From Sphingomonas sp. (GTDB lineage Bacteria > Pseudomonadota > Alphaproteobacteria > Sphingomonadales > Sphingomonadaceae), in contig CBDFKZ010000003.1 in assembly GCA_965248965.1 (NCBI GenBank), forward strand, positions 501,306 to 565,305: 64,000 nt of DNA, given 5' to 3'. The notes under the pieces are model-generated. The model made no database searches. It was not told where the DNA came from and saw only the letters and a program-made list of their open reading frames with translations. Made by a program: the position numbers and the translations under genes. Shown here piece after piece: positions 29,580 through 47,254 of the stretch; the first letter of the stretch is position 1; every line of letters begins with the position of its first letter.

Positions 29580-30440
29580 TTATCCAGATAACGGCATTCG
29601 CCGCGGCATGGGAAGTGCCGATGCCCGACAAACGATGTCGACCCCGGCGATGGCTCAGGCGACATGCGCTGCGCCCGGGAAAAACATCGCGGCTGATTAT
29701 CGGATCGCCACGCACGCCAAGACCCTATGATCGCCGGCGGAAAGGTGGTAGCGTTCTCAACAAGGGCCGCGTTCGATAAACCAGATTTGGAGCAGAGGGC
29801 GCCCGCCGGCATCAGCCCGGCCTGTCGCACCCTGTCGGAAGTCTGTCTGCAGGGGGCCCGAAGCATGTGCGCACCTATTTCTGTCGCGTCGGTCGGTATG
29901 ACGTCCTGTCTCGAGCGCAGCGTTGCAGGCGCTGGAATTCCGGGACGTCTCGAACGGACTGCGTCTTCGCGGCGCCGGCCCAAGGCGCCCCAATGTTAAG
30001 GCGTTTTTGCGGTGATGCCGACGCAGCTGCGCAGGAATTCGCGTCACGCATGCCGATGCGCGTCGATCATGCTATATATATAGGAGAAACCGTGACGGTC
30101 CCGAAGCTTGGCCGGTACGGCTTAACATAGGTAATTTCCGAAGCTTTTCGCTGCCACCAAGACCGTCTATTCCCAATGATGGACCTAATGTGGCAGGGCA
30201 ATAAAAAGGGGCCGACTTCGTAGTAAAATCCGTTGTCAATCGCGAGTTTAGTCTGAATCGAAACTTGTTACATCGTATTCGGATCTCAACTCATACCGTT
30301 ATACGTATTTATAGATTTACCTCTGTTCCGCCCGTGTTGTATAGTCGATGTAGCAATTGACGAACATGATACATGACTGGCTCGGTAAGCGGGATTAATC
30401 TGTTGAAGAACTTAGGGAATTCAACTTGTTGTGCAGTCAG

Positions 30441-31152: not shown

Positions 31153-32343
31153 TCAAGGAAATACAGCGGCAACGATGCCGGCGACGTCCTGGGCGTCGAG
31201 TTCGTCGATGTTGACTGCCATGTCGGGCACGACGCTGTACCCTGTCGTAGCCCCCGAGCGGTCGAGCGTGACGCTCATGATGCGATAGGCGTCGCCGAAG
31301 CGGATCGCGGCAAGGCTGCCCACTGTGGCCGGACGGTCCGGGTCGGCAATCACGATCGTGCTTGGCGGCAGGCCGGCGCCGAGCGTGGCGCGGCAGACGC
31401 GCAGTGCAAAGGCCCGCGGCCCCGCACCGGCCGGCGTCTCGACAATCGCGCCGGTGGGCTCGGTGGCAATCAGCCCGCCCTGCAAGGGTGCGCCGAGCAC
31501 GGACAGGCGGCGAGGCTCGGGCGACATCGGCGCGTCGGATGAGCGCGGCCTGTGCTCGACGCGTTGAGGTTTCGCTTGCTGAAGCGCGGACGCCTGCCGA
31601 GCCGGATCGTCGGATTCGCGGGCGGCCGCGCGCAACTCCAGGCGCAGCTCGGCGATCTTGTTGCGCGTACGCGACCATCTTGCTTCCGGATCGGTGATCG
31701 TGGCCACGAAAGTGTCGAACTCACCCATCAGATAGCGTTCGGCGAGCTGCGCGACCAGCGTCTCGGTATCGGCCACGCCGAACAGACGACAGATCGATGC
31801 GAGTGTGGCATCGTTCCAGCGGGTCAGCGGCTTCTGTGCATTTTCGAGGCGAGAGAGAATGACGGCCGGAAGACCGAATTCCTGGTCCAGTCGGGCAATG
31901 GTCAGGCTCCGGTCCTTGTTTCGCTGCCACCGCAGGGCCGCACCGAGCAGAACGGCGTTCCGTTCGTCCTGAACGTCCCAACTTCGCGGGTCGTGAAAGG
32001 GGTCCGCCCAGGCCGCGATGTCGAAATCGGGCGCATCGATGTCGATCAGGAGATGCTCGGGGGCGATGCCGAGCGCGTCCGCGATGCGGATCAGTTCGTC
32101 GGCCCGTGCCGAGACTTCGCCCCGCTCGATCTTCGAAAGCCGGATGTAGGGAATGTCGGCCAGCTGATTGCTGAGCGCCATGAGCTTGTACAGTCCGCGC
32201 GACTGCCGATGCTCACGCACGCGGTTGGGAAAGACGAAGCCGCGATATCGGTCCGGGCAGATTTCCTCGAGCGAACGTGCCGTTGCCAGTTGCGCGTCAA
32301 GCGCGCGCGGCGACCGGCCCGTCCCTCGGCTTGCTGTTGCCAT
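31153..32343 (-). CDS. Regulator with two XRE HTH domains and a degenerate S24-like C-terminal domain
   Basis: NRVREHRQSRG...RLSKIERGE; LGAALRWQR...ILSRLENAQ; AFALRV...IVIADPD. Confidence 0.8.
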   Translation of the reverse strand: MATASRGTGRSPRALDAQLATARSLEEICPDRYRGFVFPNRVREHRQSRGLYKLMALSNQLADIPYIRLSKIERGEVSARADELIRIADALGIAPEHLLIDIDAPDFDIAAWADPFHDPRSWDVQDERNAVLLGAALRWQRNKDRSLTIARLDQEFGLPAVILSRLENAQKPLTRWNDATLASICRLFGVADTETLVAQLAERYLMGEFDTFVATITDPEARWSRTRNKIAELRLELRAAARESDDPARQASALQQAKPQRVEHRPRSSDAPMSPEPRRLSVLGAPLQGGLIATEPTGAIVETPAGAGPRAFALRVCRATLGAGLPPSTIVIADPDRPATVGSLAAIRFGDAYRIMSVTLDRSGATTGYSVVPDMAVNIDELDAQDVAGIVAAVFP

Positions 32344-32441
32344 TGCTCGTAACCCCGGATCGCGAAGGGGCCACCCGTCCCCCTGCCTGAGCCGATGATA
32401 TAGGAGCAATCGTGAGAATTCAATTGACGCTCAATTAGTTG

Positions 32442-32933
32442 CTAATGGAGCACTTCGCTGGCTGGTGGCGCGACCAGATTTGCCCATACGCTGTTGGCGG
32501 CAAAGGGAAGCAGACAGGTCGTCGGACACAGCCCCGATTGGTGGCGCGCCAGCCAGCCGGGTGAGAGCGGCGAGGGGTTGTCCGATGAGAACGCAACCCC
32601 GCCGCCGTCGGTAAAAATCCCCAGCGCCGGTGGCAGTGCGTTCACGGGCCAGCGGCGCGCGATTTCGGCGAGCAGGACCACGGCGGCATCCTCCAGCGCG
32701 GCAAGGCTCCAGCTGAGCGGGTCGCCGGAGGAAATCGGCGCCAGATCGACGACGCGACAACTGCCGTCCCATGCGCTCGTGGTCAGCCTTGAGCGGTCGT
32801 CCGTCCCGGTAAGGGTGGCACTCAGCAATATGGCGCTGTTTGCCGCGAGAACCGGTCTTGCATGGAGGGCCAGGCGCTCGGCGATCCGGACCAACGCGGT
32901 GGGGGCACCGGGGAGCTTGCGCGCCCTGGACAT
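32442..32933 (-). CDS. Hypothetical protein
   Basis: 163 aa ORF filling the gap between the sigma and XRE genes, same strand; no motif recognised. Confidence 0.65.
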   Translation of the reverse strand: MSRARKLPGAPTALVRIAERLALHARPVLAANSAILLSATLTGTDDRSRLTTSAWDGSCRVVDLAPISSGDPLSWSLAALEDAAVVLLAEIARRWPVNALPPALGIFTDGGGVAFSSDNPSPLSPGWLARHQSGLCPTTCLLPFAANSVWANLVAPPASEVLH

Positions 32934-33068
32934 CGGTGCGCCGTGATGCGGGACGCTCCACCCGTTGGACGACTTCATGCGGCGCTTATCCCTTATATCA
33001 ACAATGCAGTACTGCGCCTGCTGTCACGCAAGGGGAGCACCGCAAGTGCGGGTGCTCCCAAACGGCCG

Positions 33069-34169
33069 TCAATGCCGGGCGGCGCTGCCCGGCGCGTTTC
33101 CGCCCAGCCGCTTCATGGCGGGAACCGGAGCGGGATTGGGGGCAATCGAGTCGATATCGACAAGCGAGGGATGCGACGCGGCCACCACATTGGCAGGTAT
33201 GGCAATGACGCGCGACAGCGTGTTGTGCGGCTGGCCTTCGGCAGGCAGCATCGACACCTTGGGCTGCTCGCCGGACACCTTGGGCGCACGCGTGCGGGCC
33301 GGCTTTGCGTAGCTTTTGCCGTATTCGGCCATTACGGCGAACTGCGGCTCGCTGGCGGCCAGTTCGGCGATCGACCGCGAGGCGCGCTTGGTGATCTGGC
33401 GGACACGTTCCTTCGTGACTCCGGTCGTCTCGCCAAGCTGGTCAAGCGTGTCGGCCTGGAAGACCCGACGCTCGACGATTTCGCGATCGCGATCCAGCTT
33501 TTGCTCGAGCTTTTCGAGTTCTTCGGGGCAGATGCCGTGCGTCCGCGTGCGGCGGAGCAGGGCGGCCGCGCGTTCGACCGGATCGGTCACCGACAGGCGT
33601 TTTGCCCGCGGCCGCTTGCGCAGCTGGTCAAGCGCGGCGGCGCGCTGATGATTGATATAGCCGTCCACGAGCGACCGGGTCGCCGCATGGGCAAGATAGT
33701 CGGACGCAGCGGATTCGGTGCGCGCCAGCGCGCATTCGTCCTCGATGATGGACTCGAGCGTGGATTCCTCGCCGTCGGCGCCCGACGTGACCGAGTGAAG
33801 GGAGACCGTCGTCGCCGCGACCTTCTTTGCCGAGGGACGCTGGTCGGTCATGACCCGGAAGCGAAGCGACTGAAGCTCGCCGCGGATCTGCCAGTTGACG
33901 AAGGTCGTGAAGAGTGCCTTTTCGGGGTCGTAACCCTGGATCGCCCGGTGCACGGCGATGGCGCAGCACTGCTCGGCGTCTTCCCAATGGGCCGTCAGGC
34001 CGTACTGGCGGATGAAATGGCGGATGCGCGGTGCGATCAGCTTGAGGATCGAGGCGAACGCCCGGTCCACGGCGGCACGCTGCCGCGCGCTGGACACGTC
34101 GTCACCCTTCGGCATGCTCTCGATGACTGCCGCAACGGCCGCCTCCAGCGCAATCGTGGTCTTTGACAT
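33069..34169 (-). CDS. Divergent sigma70-family RNA polymerase sigma factor
   Basis: Region 2 EDAEQ...VHRAIQGYDPEK...FTTFVNWQIRGE; region 3.2 VSLHS...STLESIIED; region 4.2 TLDQLGETTGVTKERVRQI. Confidence 0.85.
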   Translation of the reverse strand: MSKTTIALEAAVAAVIESMPKGDDVSSARQRAAVDRAFASILKLIAPRIRHFIRQYGLTAHWEDAEQCCAIAVHRAIQGYDPEKALFTTFVNWQIRGELQSLRFRVMTDQRPSAKKVAATTVSLHSVTSGADGEESTLESIIEDECALARTESAASDYLAHAATRSLVDGYINHQRAAALDQLRKRPRAKRLSVTDPVERAAALLRRTRTHGICPEELEKLEQKLDRDREIVERRVFQADTLDQLGETTGVTKERVRQITKRASRSIAELAASEPQFAVMAEYGKSYAKPARTRAPKVSGEQPKVSMLPAEGQPHNTLSRVIAIPANVVAASHPSLVDIDSIAPNPAPVPAMKRLGGNAPGSAARH

Positions 34170-34338
34170 GGTTAACCCCCAGAAAAGAAAAGCAGGTTGG
34201 CCCCGCGCCAACCGTCGCCCTCACCACGTCTTTCTGGCATCGGAGAGTTAATAGGAGTGTTATCATCCTATACGAAAATATACGTAACCATCCTATAAAA
34301 GCATGGTGCTGAGGATGTTTAGCGGCGAGTGGACCCGG

Positions 34339-35295
34339 TTAAGACGCGAAACGCCCCGGCGTTACGTGGCGATCGACATAGTCGAGCAGCCACGACCGAT
34401 GGGCGCTGGCGGCGTCGCCTGTCGCCGCAATCCGGCGGTTTGCGCTGGCCGTGCCGACCTGGGCATCGAGGAGGACCCTGGCGCGTCCACTGTCGAGCCC
34501 GCCCTTCAGGAAGCGTATCGCGTCGCCGGTCCCCAGGTGATGGCCGATATAGGCGGCGCGCGCCACCGTGGCGACGTCGCCGCCGATGGCGATCCCCGCA
34601 TTCTTCAGCTTTTCGACGCTCCGCAACGCATAGTCGGCGGTCGCGTTGATCGATGCGGATCCATCATAGCGGAGCGCCAGCAGCGCCGAGCGGGCAGCGG
34701 GGAGAATGCGTCCGTCACTGCCGAGCCAGCCCTGTCGACTGGCAACGCCGTTCAGCCAGGTACCCGCGCGCTCGGCCTCGCTCTGCCAGGTGCCGGCCAG
34801 AAACTGGCCGAGGCCGGCTGCGCTCGAGCGCGGATTGCGCGACGTCGTGTTCCATTTCCCGTCACAGTTCTTGCCCGCTTCCGCATCGACGATGGCGGCC
34901 AGGGCGGCAGGCGGCAGACCCGTGCGCTCTGCCGCGGCATGGATCGTGTCGCGATAGGCACTGTTGGGACCCAGGCCCGCAACGGGCGCGCTCGTCGAGG
35001 CGGCAACCGGCGACCCGGTCGCAACGGGAATCTCCGCCGCGGCAGCATCGTCTTTCACGGGATCGGCAGGCGTCGCTGCCGACGCTTTCGTCGACTGCGG
35101 CCCGAGCAGCGACAACAGCGAATCGAGATTGAACGTGTCGCAGCGCTGCGCCGATTGCGCCTGGTCTTCCGCATCGGATTCGCTGCCGAGTGCGGCGCGC
35201 CACAGACGCGCCGTTACGTCGCTCTGCGCCTGGGAATAGATGAGCGCGGCCTTTTCACTCGGGCTCATGCGGCTGAGATCGTTGGCAATCAGCAT
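34339..35295 (-). CDS. Lytic transglycosylase/muramidase, possible FlgJ-like rod peptidoglycan hydrolase
   Basis: AIVDAE catalytic Glu and SSAAGLGQF lysozyme-like motif; overlaps the fliJ stop. Confidence 0.75.
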   Translation of the reverse strand: MLIANDLSRMSPSEKAALIYSQAQSDVTARLWRAALGSESDAEDQAQSAQRCDTFNLDSLLSLLGPQSTKASAATPADPVKDDAAAAEIPVATGSPVAASTSAPVAGLGPNSAYRDTIHAAAERTGLPPAALAAIVDAEAGKNCDGKWNTTSRNPRSSAAGLGQFLAGTWQSEAERAGTWLNGVASRQGWLGSDGRILPAARSALLALRYDGSASINATADYALRSVEKLKNAGIAIGGDVATVARAAYIGHHLGTGDAIRFLKGGLDSGRARVLLDAQVGTASANRRIAATGDAASAHRSWLLDYVDRHVTPGRFAS

Positions 35296-35744
35296 GCGGC
35301 CGGCCCTTCAAGACGCCTTTGCCCCGCGCCGACACGATTTAGCCGGTTGAAACGCGCGGCCGAGAAGTCGTCGATCTGATCCTGCTCGGCCTTTGCCAGC
35401 ACAAGGCTCGCTTCGCTTCGAAAGCGATCGGCGGCGCCTTCGATAGCGGCCATTTCGCCAAAGGCCTTCGCCGCTTCCTGGCGAAGGCTGCCGAGCCGTG
35501 TTCCCACGGCGACGGCGTCGCGCACGATTTCCGTGCGCGCTGCGCGCATGCGCGCGCCAAAGGCCGGGGCCGCGCAGCGCCAGTCGCTGGCGGCGAGAAG
35601 TGCCTCGTCACGCAAAGAGGTCTCGATCGCCTGATGTCTTTGGCCGAGGATTTCGAGCTGATTCAGTTCGGCAGCGATCGACAGGCGCATCGCGTCGATC
35701 TGGCGCTGCAGCAGCCGCAGCACGGCATCATAGGGCGTTTTCAT
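35289..35744 (-). CDS. fliJ: Flagellar export protein FliJ
   Basis: Coiled-coil protein coupled to fliI, with EQDQIDD C-terminal motif. Confidence 0.7.
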   Translation of the reverse strand: MKTPYDAVLRLLQRQIDAMRLSIAAELNQLEILGQRHQAIETSLRDEALLAASDWRCAAPAFGARMRAARTEIVRDAVAVGTRLGSLRQEAAKAFGEMAAIEGAADRFRSEASLVLAKAEQDQIDDFSAARFNRLNRVGAGQRRLEGPAAC

Positions 35745-37066
35745 TCGGCGACCTCGAGCAGGGCCGCCAGTCGGGCGAAGCTGTCTTCGGGGGAGCCGCG
35801 GTCCTGCTTGGTCTGCGTCAGCAGTGCCTCGATCTGCGGTGCGAGCGCAATGGCGCGATCGACCTCTGCGTTCGCGCCGGCGGCATAGGCCCCCAGCCGC
35901 ACGATCTCTTCCATGTCGCCATAGGTCGACAATATCGACCGCGCAGCGAGGCGGAGCCGGTTCTGGTCGTCGTCGAGCGCGCCGGGAAGCGTGCGGGAAA
36001 CCGACTTCAATATGTCGATCGCCGGGTAGCGGCCGCGCTCGGCAATGCGTCGCGTAATGACGATATGCCCGTCCAATATGCCGCGTACGGCATCGGCAAC
36101 GGGCTCGTTATGGTCGTCGCCATCGACGAGCACGGTGAACAAGCCGGTTATCGAGCCCTGGCCCGGCAGTCCGGGGCCAGCGCGTTCGAGCAGGCGCGGC
36201 AGCTCGGCAAAGACGGTAGGTGTGTAGCCCTTGGTCGCGGCCGGTTCGCCGCTGGCGAGGCCGATCTCGCGCTGAGCCATGGCGAACCGGGTCACCGAGT
36301 CCATCAGGCACAGGACATTCAGCCCCTGATCGCGAAAATGTTCCGCAACCGCCATTGTCGTCCAGGCAGCCTGGCGGCGCATCAGTGCCGGCTCGTCGGA
36401 CGTCGCCACGACGACGACGCTGCGTGCCAGCCCTTCGGGTCCGAGGTCGTCCTCGACGAATTCCTGAACTTCACGGCCCCGCTCGCCGATCAGGCCGATG
36501 ACGGCGACGTCGCATCCTGTCCAGCGGGCAAGCATGGACAGCAGGACCGACTTGCCGACGCCGGAGCCGGCAAACAGACCCAATCGCTGCCCCTGGCAAA
36601 GCGGCGCAAAGATATCGAGGGCGCGGACTCCCGTTGCCACATAACTGCCGACGCGGGCGCGTTGCGCCGCCGGCGGCGGGGAGGCCTTGATGGGATAGAG
36701 GTCATGGCCGGGCAAGATCGCTCCCTTGCCGTCGATGGGGTTGCCGAGCCCGTCGACCATGCGGCCGAGCCAGGCGGCACCGGGCCGCACCGAAAAGCGG
36801 CCGGCGATCAGGTTTGCGCGCGCACCCGACATGATGCCCTGGGGGTCGCTGAAGGGCAGGCAGTGCGCCACGTCGCGATCGAGCCCCGTGACCTCGGCGG
36901 CGACAATGCCGTCGGCGGCAACGACGTCCACGTGCGACCCGATCTGGGCCGCCCCGGTCAATCCCTCGACCTCGATCAGGGCGCCCCGCACGCCGATCAC
37001 CCGACCGAAGCGCTGGTCGGGCACGTGTTCCCGCATCGTGCGCGCGGCAGCAGCAAGTGACCTCAT
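35741..37066 (-). CDS. fliI: Flagellar export ATPase FliI
   Basis: GLFAGSGVGKS, LIGERGREV, MDSVTRFAMAQREIG, LDGHIV. Confidence 0.97.
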   Translation of the reverse strand: MRSLAAAARTMREHVPDQRFGRVIGVRGALIEVEGLTGAAQIGSHVDVVAADGIVAAEVTGLDRDVAHCLPFSDPQGIMSGARANLIAGRFSVRPGAAWLGRMVDGLGNPIDGKGAILPGHDLYPIKASPPPAAQRARVGSYVATGVRALDIFAPLCQGQRLGLFAGSGVGKSVLLSMLARWTGCDVAVIGLIGERGREVQEFVEDDLGPEGLARSVVVVATSDEPALMRRQAAWTTMAVAEHFRDQGLNVLCLMDSVTRFAMAQREIGLASGEPAATKGYTPTVFAELPRLLERAGPGLPGQGSITGLFTVLVDGDDHNEPVADAVRGILDGHIVITRRIAERGRYPAIDILKSVSRTLPGALDDDQNRLRLAARSILSTYGDMEEIVRLGAYAAGANAEVDRAIALAPQIEALLTQTKQDRGSPEDSFARLAALLEVAE

Positions 37067-37074
37067 CGATCTGG

Positions 37075-37479
37075 TCAGGCAGCCTGGGGAACGGCGCGTT
37101 CAAGCGCCGTCGTCTCATAGTCGATCAGCACGCGGCAGTCGGCGAGGGCGCGATAATAATTGCCCGTTGCCACCTTGTGGGCGAACCGCGCGCACAAGGC
37201 CTTGGCCTCGAGGGATTCGAGCGCGCCGAGAAGGTCGCTCAGATACTGAATGATCGCATCCTGATGCTTGGTCTGCGACTTGGGGTCGATGTAGGCCATC
37301 ATGCAGGAAAAATAGAGCCGCCGCGCCGGTGTCACGGCGTCTTCCGCGGACATGACCTCGCGACCGCGCAGAAGAGAGACATTGTTCTCCACGATCAGGT
37401 CGGTGCGGCCGACCGCGCGCATCACGGCGCCGTTCACGATCATCTTCTCACCGTCGCGCAGGGAAATACGAAGCGTCAT
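37075..37479 (-). CDS. flbT: Flagellin translational regulator FlbT
   Basis: MTLRISLRDGEKMIVNGAV...TPARRLYF...YYRAL. Confidence 0.92.
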   Translation of the reverse strand: MTLRISLRDGEKMIVNGAVMRAVGRTDLIVENNVSLLRGREVMSAEDAVTPARRLYFSCMMAYIDPKSQTKHQDAIIQYLSDLLGALESLEAKALCARFAHKVATGNYYRALADCRVLIDYETTALERAVPQAA

Positions 37480-37639
37480 CACAGGTCCTTTGTGGCTTAG
37501 TGGTCTTATAGGATGGTGGCGCCCCGCAGGCGGCGCTTTGCCGAATTTTTGCCAAATGCCCCGACCCGGCAAAGTTCATCCTACAATTAAAGTCACGAGC
37601 GCCACCCGACGCTCAAATGCTTATTGCCGGAGAACCTTC

Positions 37640-47115: not shown

Positions 47116-47254
47116 CGGCTTGCCTTTCGTTCCACGGACGCAGGAGAAATTGTTCCCGCCGCCCCAATTCATCTCGTTCCGTCTATTATAGGAGAGGTAC
47201 CGGGCAAATTCTGCCTAGTGCCATCGGAACGAAGATTTATCTGGAGCGAACGAG

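Follow-up and report, generated by a model that had tools for sequence, protein, structure and literature searches.

What is a gene whose product is built like a phage repressor doing at the end of a flagellar gene cluster? The question is raised by a 64,000-nucleotide stretch of a Sphingomonas sp. genome (GenBank assembly GCA_965248965.1, contig CBDFKZ010000003.1, positions 501,306 to 565,305 of the forward strand; hereafter the window), in which a minus-strand open reading frame (ORF) at 31153–32343 encodes a protein of 396 residues, hereafter the regulator. An initial annotation, made from the letters alone, described two XRE helix-turn-helix (HTH) units followed by an S24-like domain without its catalytic residues, and proposed a non-cleavable, phage-derived repressor domesticated for flagellar control. 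Our best explanation as a whole, to which we assign a probability of about 0.7, is that the regulator has the lambda CI/LexA design, does not cut itself, sets the expression of the flagellar cluster in which it is found, and was recruited from a mobile element.

The reading frame ends with a stop codon at 31153–31155 and begins with an ATG at 32341–32343 (ORF list and translation). Because the regulator has 439 homologues in the databases and a highly conserved C-terminal domain (CTD; 10 invariant columns in 56 sequences), the family is not a chance ORF; the homologues' products are named only 'XRE/helix-turn-helix', and the organisms named for these matches are Sphingomonadales. The gene and the domain on which most of the argument turns are:

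31153..32343, minus strand: tandem-HTH/pseudo-S24 regulator, complete gene (ORF list, translation, 439 homologues, N-terminus conserved from Asp31)
31156..31509, minus strand: LexA/CI-type (S24-fold) CTD without catalytic residues, residues 279–396 (Foldseek against PDB and BFVD, profile search, hhalign)

Structure prediction, the check that the initial annotation had proposed for its S24-like fold, gave a clear answer. An AlphaFold2 (AF2) model of the regulator, built on a 56-sequence alignment (mean predicted local distance difference test score, pLDDT, of 89), consists of two helical bundles (approximately residues 42–98 and 124–205), a long helix (219–245) and a confidently modeled, all-beta domain (279–394). 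When this model was compared with the PDB using Foldseek, the 12 best matches were all lambda CI, a lambda-186 hybrid repressor or LexA; the first was 2ho0, a fragment of lambda CI that includes the cleavage-site region (E 2e-5, target template-modeling (TM) score 0.67, 130 columns). The fold matches to LexA, lambda CI and 186 CI have probabilities of 0.98–1.0, with phage 186 CI (2fkd and 2fjr) further down the list at ranks 35 and 38. Among predicted viral structures (BFVD), 31 matches have E <= 1e-3; the named ones are mostly phage 'repressor protein CI' or LexA-like, and the best, a protein of 339 residues, is aligned over 368 columns.

Curated models do not see this relationship: the last 120 residues of the regulator are left unmatched by Pfam and NCBIfam alike, and the S24 model PF00717, which detects four true S24 genes in the host genome, does not include the regulator among them (it scores below threshold on the regulator, and only two of 56 family members reach E ~0.1). 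Searches of PDB sequences with the whole protein and with the CTD profile returned no S24 entry, so the kinship is visible only by fold comparison and by a very large profile search. For the latter, the CTD profile (alignment A2, made up of 56 translations of the window gene and of genes in fetched loci) was compared with 1.84 billion representative proteins, and three tiers were found: the family itself; distant tandem-HTH proteins; and, at E 1e-5 to 1e-3, genuine HTH_3 + Peptidase_S24 proteins of 200–270 residues (Pfam E down to 4e-30) that carry the G-D-S-M nucleophile motif. An hhalign comparison of the CTD with these third-tier proteins gave 98.7% probability over 77 columns and an E-value of 3e-16 (inflated, because the S24 proteins had been chosen by the query profile itself), with the RATL sequence of the regulator placed on GDSM. 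Thus, on two independent lines, fold and sequence, the CTD is S24-like, and the profile comparisons indicate homology to S24 for a domain that lies outside the curated PF00717 model.

The homology allows the catalytic positions to be located, at three sites:

31381..31392, minus strand: RATL, R318–L321, counterpart of the S24 G-D-S-M nucleophile motif, within AFALRVCRATLG (S24 profile alignments, column counts)
31270..31287, minus strand: YRIMSV strand, Y353–V358, counterpart of the S24 catalytic-Lys strand (global hhalign against 31 alphaproteobacterial S24 domains, column counts)
31474..31494, minus strand: vestigial cleavage-site strand GAPLQGG, G284–G290 (hhalign, column counts)

Which residues stand at the Ser119 and Lys156 positions was read from the alignments alone. 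RATL, which the initial annotation had quoted as the replacement for GDSM, is present in AFALRVCRATLG and falls on GDSM in two independent profile alignments; in the family the motif reads R-A/P-T-L, with R318 and L321 invariant and position 320 occupied by Thr in 52 of the 56 sequences, Ser in three and Pro in one. The second observation, that no catalytic Lys is evident around YRIMSV, is likewise borne out: the CTD of the regulator contains no Lys, and no column of the 56-sequence CTD alignment reaches 30% Lys. In the global hhalign alignment the catalytic Lys is aligned with position 356, which is always L, V or M, and R354, two residues earlier, is invariant; the register here is certain only to within about two residues, and none of the registers supplies a Lys. 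Finally, Q288-G289 align with the Ala-Gly scissile bond and are variable (P/A/G/Q and others at 288; D/G/N/H/E at 289), with the flanking glycines kept (G284 in 55/56, G290 invariant). By these alignments the nucleophilic Ser, the Lys general base and the conserved Ala-Gly are all absent from the CTD; because these are the three features that define self-cleavage by S24 proteins, the CTD is almost certainly non-cleaving, as had been proposed. Judged by its 10 invariant columns, the CTD fold, together with the linker strand, is under strong constraint. In one lineage of the family (L107/L113), the hairpin that precedes the counterpart of the Lys strand contains an insertion of ~17 residues.

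The N-terminal half has the two XRE units that had been described, that is, two separate stretches matched by Pfam HTH models and two helical bundles in the AF2 model:

32044..32232, minus strand: XRE HTH unit 1, approximately residues 38–100, recognition helix PYIRLSKIERGE (Pfam HTH_3, AF2 helices 42–98, invariant columns)
31729..31974, minus strand: XRE HTH unit 2, approximately residues 124–205, recognition helix PAVILSRLENAQKP (Pfam HTH_31/HTH_26, AF2 helices 124–205, invariant columns)
31510..31716, minus strand: helical connector, residues 210–255 (long helix 219–245), followed by a variable linker, approximately 256–278 (AF2, alignment)

HTH_3 matches residues 68–97 (30.9 bits, cut-off 23), HTH_31 residues 133–195 (35.5 bits, cut-off 27) and HTH_26 residues 143–190; all of the HTH matches exceed the curated Pfam cut-offs, and HTH_3 is matched in each of the 56 family members scanned. 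The two most conserved stretches of the family are the recognition helices, PYIRLSKIERGE and PAVILSRLENA: Y66–E76 in the first unit is almost entirely invariant, and V161, S164, R165, E167, N168 and A169 are invariant in the second. This conservation argues that neither unit has lost its function and that the target they read is conserved. The linker is variable and gapped in the alignment and is predicted to be disordered (pLDDT < 50 for residues 258–272). The public record of the regulator starts at Met55 and is 342 residues long, thereby leaving out 32181–32343 (minus strand); this start removes the first helices of the first HTH unit, though family conservation begins at Asp31, and it looks like an annotation error, the homologues and the position of the promoter described below both favoring the ATG at 32343.

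The second half of the question is whether the flagellar setting is more than incidental. The regulator is the last of a co-directional series of minus-strand genes in the window:

37075..37572, minus strand: flbT
35741..37066, minus strand: fliI
35289..35744, minus strand: fliJ, weak match
34339..35295, minus strand: orf318, a 318-residue gene of unknown function
33069..34211, minus strand: divergent sigma-70-family ('sigma-like') gene, heading a three-gene tail of sigma-like gene, orf178 and regulator (Pfam Sigma70_r4, weak NCBIfam sigma-70 matches)
32442..32978, minus strand: orf178, a conserved gene of 178 residues and unknown function, flanked by the sigma-like gene and the regulator gene (detected at this place in 47 of 82 loci)

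Further flagellar genes (flgK, flgL, fliM, flhA, fliN, fliF, fliH and fliG) lie on either side in the window. A FixJ-type response regulator gene, convergent with the 3' end of the regulator gene, is kept in the closest relatives only. Neither in the window nor in the loci examined is the regulator flanked by integrase, replication or transfer genes.

In a scan of reference genomes, one genome per species, we found 155 loci encoding the regulator, all in Sphingomonadales; synteny was analyzed in 82 loci (80 fetched of the 155, plus two others). Flagellar genes are found beside the regulator in ~70 of the 80 fetched loci and also in three further loci checked by Pfam (L074, L086 and L098), in which FlgI or FlhB is located 2.4–3.5 kb further on. 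The sigma-like gene immediately precedes the regulator, in the same orientation, in 58 of the 82 loci, and the full order flbT-fliI-fliJ-orf318-sigma-(orf178)-regulator is conserved in ~50. In 10 loci of the Novosphingobium type, the regulator instead follows a flhA-fliN-fliF-fliH-fliG block by ~1.7 kb. The other loci, to which L074, L086 and L098 belong, show none of the flagellar genes of the window, in several cases because little upstream sequence is present. The three types of context largely match clades in the tree of the regulator, and in this maximum-likelihood tree 83 flagellar-linked proteins are located on one side of a single branch (support 91/98). One genome, Sphingomonas echinoides RIT-Gs-1, has two complete flbT...sigma-orf178-regulator copies (L051 and L113).

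The association extends to presence and absence. In 150 genomes of the order, the whole-protein and CTD profiles identified only the window's own copy of the regulator; because the gene is rare in this sample, the genus was used for the co-occurrence test. Among 41 genomes of the genus, the CTD profile matches four, and FlbT (PF07378) is found in those four plus one, in which FlbT is 5.5 kb from a contig end and the expected position of the regulator is beyond that end; none of the 36 genomes without FlbT has the regulator. Some FlhA is encoded by 35 of the 41 genomes, with the high-scoring FlhA of the window's type confined to the five FlbT genomes. Thus, the regulator does not accompany flagella as such; it travels with a single kind of flagellar cluster, the Caulobacter type (FlbT/FlaF/FlbD), whose distribution is patchy, and its flagellar link is strong but circumstantial. 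The neighborhood, the co-occurrence across genomes and a flagellar-type promoter box (described next) speak for the putative domestication for flagellar control. As an observation on the clusters themselves, the genus has two alternative flagellar systems: 30 genomes lack FlbT and have an FlhA with a lower score for the Pfam model, and in five (including the host) the FlbT-type cluster provides the sole FlhA. This suggests that the whole cluster was replaced or horizontally transferred.

The regulator also shares a promoter element with the cluster:

32395..32423, minus strand: promoter-like site TTGAAT-17-TATCAT of the regulator, overlapping the CTCCTATA box at 32399–32406, ~56 nt upstream of the ATG (promoter scan)

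This site is located in the 98-nt gap that precedes the regulator and is the only sigma-70-like match in the scanned 30.9–34.4 kb. The octamer CTCCTATA occurs four times in the window (0.09 expected); besides the copy at the regulator, one stands before fliF (60057), one before a gene ending at 47172 and one at 30079, in a gap with few genes. Boxes of the related CCTATA type occur in front of fliG, of flbT and of the sigma-like gene, and a TCCTATA box is found upstream of the regulator orthologue in 19 of the 82 loci. A longer version of the regulator ORF, starting at a TTG at 32409, is unlikely: this codon is upstream of the only sigma-70-like promoter match (32423–32395), and in the family alignment the homologues start near the equivalent of the ATG at 32343. 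Two further arrangements of the box deserve mention. Upstream of the sigma-like gene, three CCTATA-type boxes occur within 52 nt (34248–34299), two as plus-strand direct repeats 25 nt apart and one inverted (minus strand); these could be divergent promoters or binding sites for the regulator. In the 850 bp at 29580–30425, a region of lower G+C with no convincing ORF, the CTCCTATA box at 30079–30086 (minus strand) is followed by TATATATAG, with no gene start within ~500 nt downstream; this gap may mark an unannotated small gene or RNA.

Where did such a protein come from? The second-tier relatives have the complete architecture and also lack the Ser (e.g., VKATLGPGLP and LCTRRLGSLLP in the GDSM region), and the neighborhoods of distant relatives suggest mobile elements. 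P0170 and P0169 are divergent from a small gene, a gene of ~430–560 residues and a DnaB-type helicase gene, and on the contig of P0170 a MobA/MobL relaxase is encoded 3.8 kb away on the other side; P0191 is encoded immediately after a DnaB-type helicase gene of the same orientation; and P0196 has the same divergent layout as P0170 and P0169, its neighbors having no recorded Pfam matches. P0176, P0180 and P0184, in which LCTRRLG... stands where GDSM would be and which are matched by the CTD profile with E-values of 1e-10 to 1e-7, adjoin a TrbL/VirB6-like gene (in the case of P0176, which follows it, one with a Peptidase_M23 domain); these three form a separate, long-branched clade in the tree without a flagellar link. 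A relative of 388 residues, with 27% identity over 331 residues and an LG.G.P motif, is encoded by plasmid pCME4A9II of Croceicoccus marinus among toxin-antitoxin and IS66 genes. A search of a curated phage collection with P0170 gave only a single-HTH match.

From these neighborhoods, the lineage of flagellar regulators was probably recruited from a mobile-element repressor that already had tandem HTH units and a non-cleaving CTD. The suggestion of a phage-repressor origin is therefore plausible on the strength of the HTH and S24 profile matches, the viral fold matches and the mobile-element relatives; the direction of transfer, from mobile element to flagellar cluster, is a deduction, made because the non-flagellar relatives are broad and diverse. 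Beside these relatives we note two loci in which the gene of a distant tandem-HTH/dead-S24 relative (L118:4549–5739 and L120:4344–5576) is divergent from a conserved trio encoding proteins of ~160 and ~430–560 residues and a DnaB-type helicase, and a third (L119:3217–4482) with a similar layout whose neighbors have no Pfam matches; the layout of L118 and L120 resembles the repressor/replication module of an uncharacterized group of plasmids or phages.

How might such a regulator work? We propose that the two unlike HTH units would bind a conserved, probably bipartite and asymmetric operator, and that the pseudo-S24 domain would oligomerize, by analogy with CI and LexA. The regulator would thereby set the expression of the cluster, most likely by repressing the neighboring sigma-like gene and/or its own promoter; these would be the most economical targets, and a simple switch would result. 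With self-cleavage almost certainly lost, its input would be received by binding: instead of RecA-stimulated cleavage, a partner occupying the former active-site cleft, which is predicted to be lined by the invariant R318 and R354, would tune its activity, the candidates being the orf178 protein or a small ligand. The orf178 protein has an invariant core (RWP...P...G..TDG.G), no Pfam match and a confident AF2 model (pLDDT 85, predicted TM score (pTM) 0.79); the model was compared with the PDB in case it had the fold of an anti-sigma factor or antirepressor, and no match had E <= 0.001 (EsaG/DUF600 came first, with E 0.23), so that, judged by the model, it may have an undescribed fold and is a candidate partner of the sigma factor or of the regulator. 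In two members scanned (L074:11225–12598 and L098:11221–12654), a GGDEF-EAL gene directly follows the regulator, within 15–82 nt; they belong to a clade of nine loci on the tree that differ in the arrangement of the flagellar cluster. This adjacency hints at a cyclic di-GMP (c-di-GMP) connection.

Several points count against this proposal or parts of it. The hhalign comparison of the CTD with 31 alphaproteobacterial LexA-type S24 domains chosen independently of the query gave a weak, though collinear, alignment (P 0.014 global, 0.086 local), in addition to the inflated E-value given above; three of the 56 members keep a Ser at position 320; and, given the slack in the register, the invariant R354 might occupy the Lys site. 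Dimerization through the CTD would follow from analogy alone. The orf178 gene is not detected in ~40% of the loci, hence its product is no universal partner. The hunt for an operator identified none: the 8-bp palindrome TCAATTGA in the promoter of the regulator is not enriched, and repeat searches of five intergenic regions gave only CCTATA-type boxes. The regulator could equally be an activator instead of a repressor.

The activator alternative can be made specific: the oriented (C)CTATA boxes before the flagellar operons would be its asymmetric sites, and RNA polymerase would be recruited there as it is by lambda CI at PRM. The boxes point the same way as the genes that follow them, and ahead of the sigma-like gene they form direct repeats with a period of 25 nt; the near-invariance of the recognition helices across the order implies a conserved target, and two different HTH units in tandem are well suited to a site without symmetry; however, the box holds a near-perfect −10 hexamer (TATAAT), precedes the regulator in only 19 of the 82 loci, and is tied directly to the protein by nothing that we found, so we regard this version as unlikely, if worth keeping in mind. 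We are more doubtful still of a bolder reading, namely that the sigma-like gene, orf178 and the regulator form a self-contained, lysogeny-like on/off switch for motility that travels with the cluster, with the cleft as a receptor for the orf178 protein or for an anionic small molecule; c-di-GMP is a candidate ligand because of the GGDEF-EAL gene that directly follows the regulator in one clade.

The other rivals question the flagellar role or the loss of cleavage. The regulator might be a repressor left behind by a mobile element that it once served in immunity or maintenance, now a passenger on a transferred flagellar island, controlling the genes of the element and not motility. Such an origin would fit the patchiness of the cluster (five of 41 genomes of the genus) and the company of the closest non-flagellar relatives (DnaB, MobA/MobL relaxase and VirB6-like genes, and the toxin-antitoxin and IS66 genes of the Croceicoccus plasmid), but a passenger would have to have stayed beside flagellar genes through at least three arrangements of the cluster, in step with the clades of its own tree, and its flanks, in the window and the examined loci alike, contain no integrase, replication or transfer genes; also, the whole protein is strongly conserved and its promoter box is common to fliF and other genes of the cluster. 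We consider this very improbable. Hardly to be expected, and to us the least probable of these alternatives, is that the CTD is still regulated by proteolysis, either by Thr320 (or Ser) chemistry with Arg354 or by a protease acting in trans, as in ImmR/ImmA and DdrO/IrrE. A possible nucleophile is indeed present (Thr in 52 and Ser in three of 56), R354 is invariant near the Lys position, the cleavage-site strand is retained (G290 invariant, G284 in 55/56), and the best PDB sequence match of the first HTH unit is DdrO, at an E-value of only 0.038; yet the domain has no Lys, Arg serves poorly as a general base, the residues at 288 and 289 vary, and no gene for an ImmA/IrrE-type metalloprotease was found among the scanned neighbors. 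The non-cleaving flagellar regulator recruited from a mobile element is the reading we prefer.

Sphingomonad flagellar regulation is poorly described. We found one paper that discusses it; regulation is modeled there on Caulobacter (CtrA, FlbD/FliX, FlbT/FlaF), and the regulator gene is not mentioned (PMC8921679). A full-text literature search found no published description or mutant of the regulator, and among public sequencing runs none was identified as RNA. A conserved regulator that is present only with the FlbT-type cluster, beside a sigma-like factor, points to an additional layer of control. It is also a further case in which the self-cleaving domain of phage repressors is reused as a non-catalytic module, and it belongs to a wider, unnamed family whose members combine two XRE heads with a dead S24 domain and range from mobile elements and secretion loci to a flagellar cluster.

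Among the closest known designs is that of lambda CI, LexA and UmuD (MEROPS S24, PF00717): an N-terminal HTH, a linker and a beta CTD of the same fold are shared, these proteins provide the best structural matches, and the profile-level homology includes the AGPRAFALRV...VVDPDR core. They differ in having one HTH unit instead of two, whereas in the regulator Ser is replaced by Thr, Lys is missing, Ala-Gly is degenerate and the Pfam score is below threshold; its context is a chromosomal flagellar cluster, not the SOS response or a prophage, and no RecA-dependent self-cleavage is predicted. In phage 186 CI and the Gifsy-type repressors the CTD oligomerizes, and inactivation is by a binding protein or antirepressor, not by self-cleavage; 186 CI is a weaker fold match than lambda CI or LexA, has a single DNA-binding domain and functions in prophage immunity. 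SinR and SlrR of Bacillus subtilis are XRE-family HTH repressors whose oligomerization partners set the switch between motile and sessile states; the analogy is functional only, as their CTD is unrelated, their HTH is single and they are not in a flagellar cluster.

A further comparison is with RogA of Caulobacter crescentus, an HTH protein with an S24 autopeptidase-like domain that lacks key catalytic residues and a direct repressor of gafYZ, the dedicated activator of a domesticated machine (PMC9632790). Compared by architecture, from the description of RogA, both are alphaproteobacterial HTH proteins with a dead S24-like domain; RogA, however, has a single HTH and 213 residues, and controls a gene transfer agent. 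Non-cleaving LexA/CI-like regulators are thus established, RogA, phage 186 CI and the Gifsy-type repressors being examples; what is new here is the combination of a doubled HTH with a dead S24 domain in a named, culturable group, and its fixation in a flagellar gene cluster beside a dedicated sigma-like factor.

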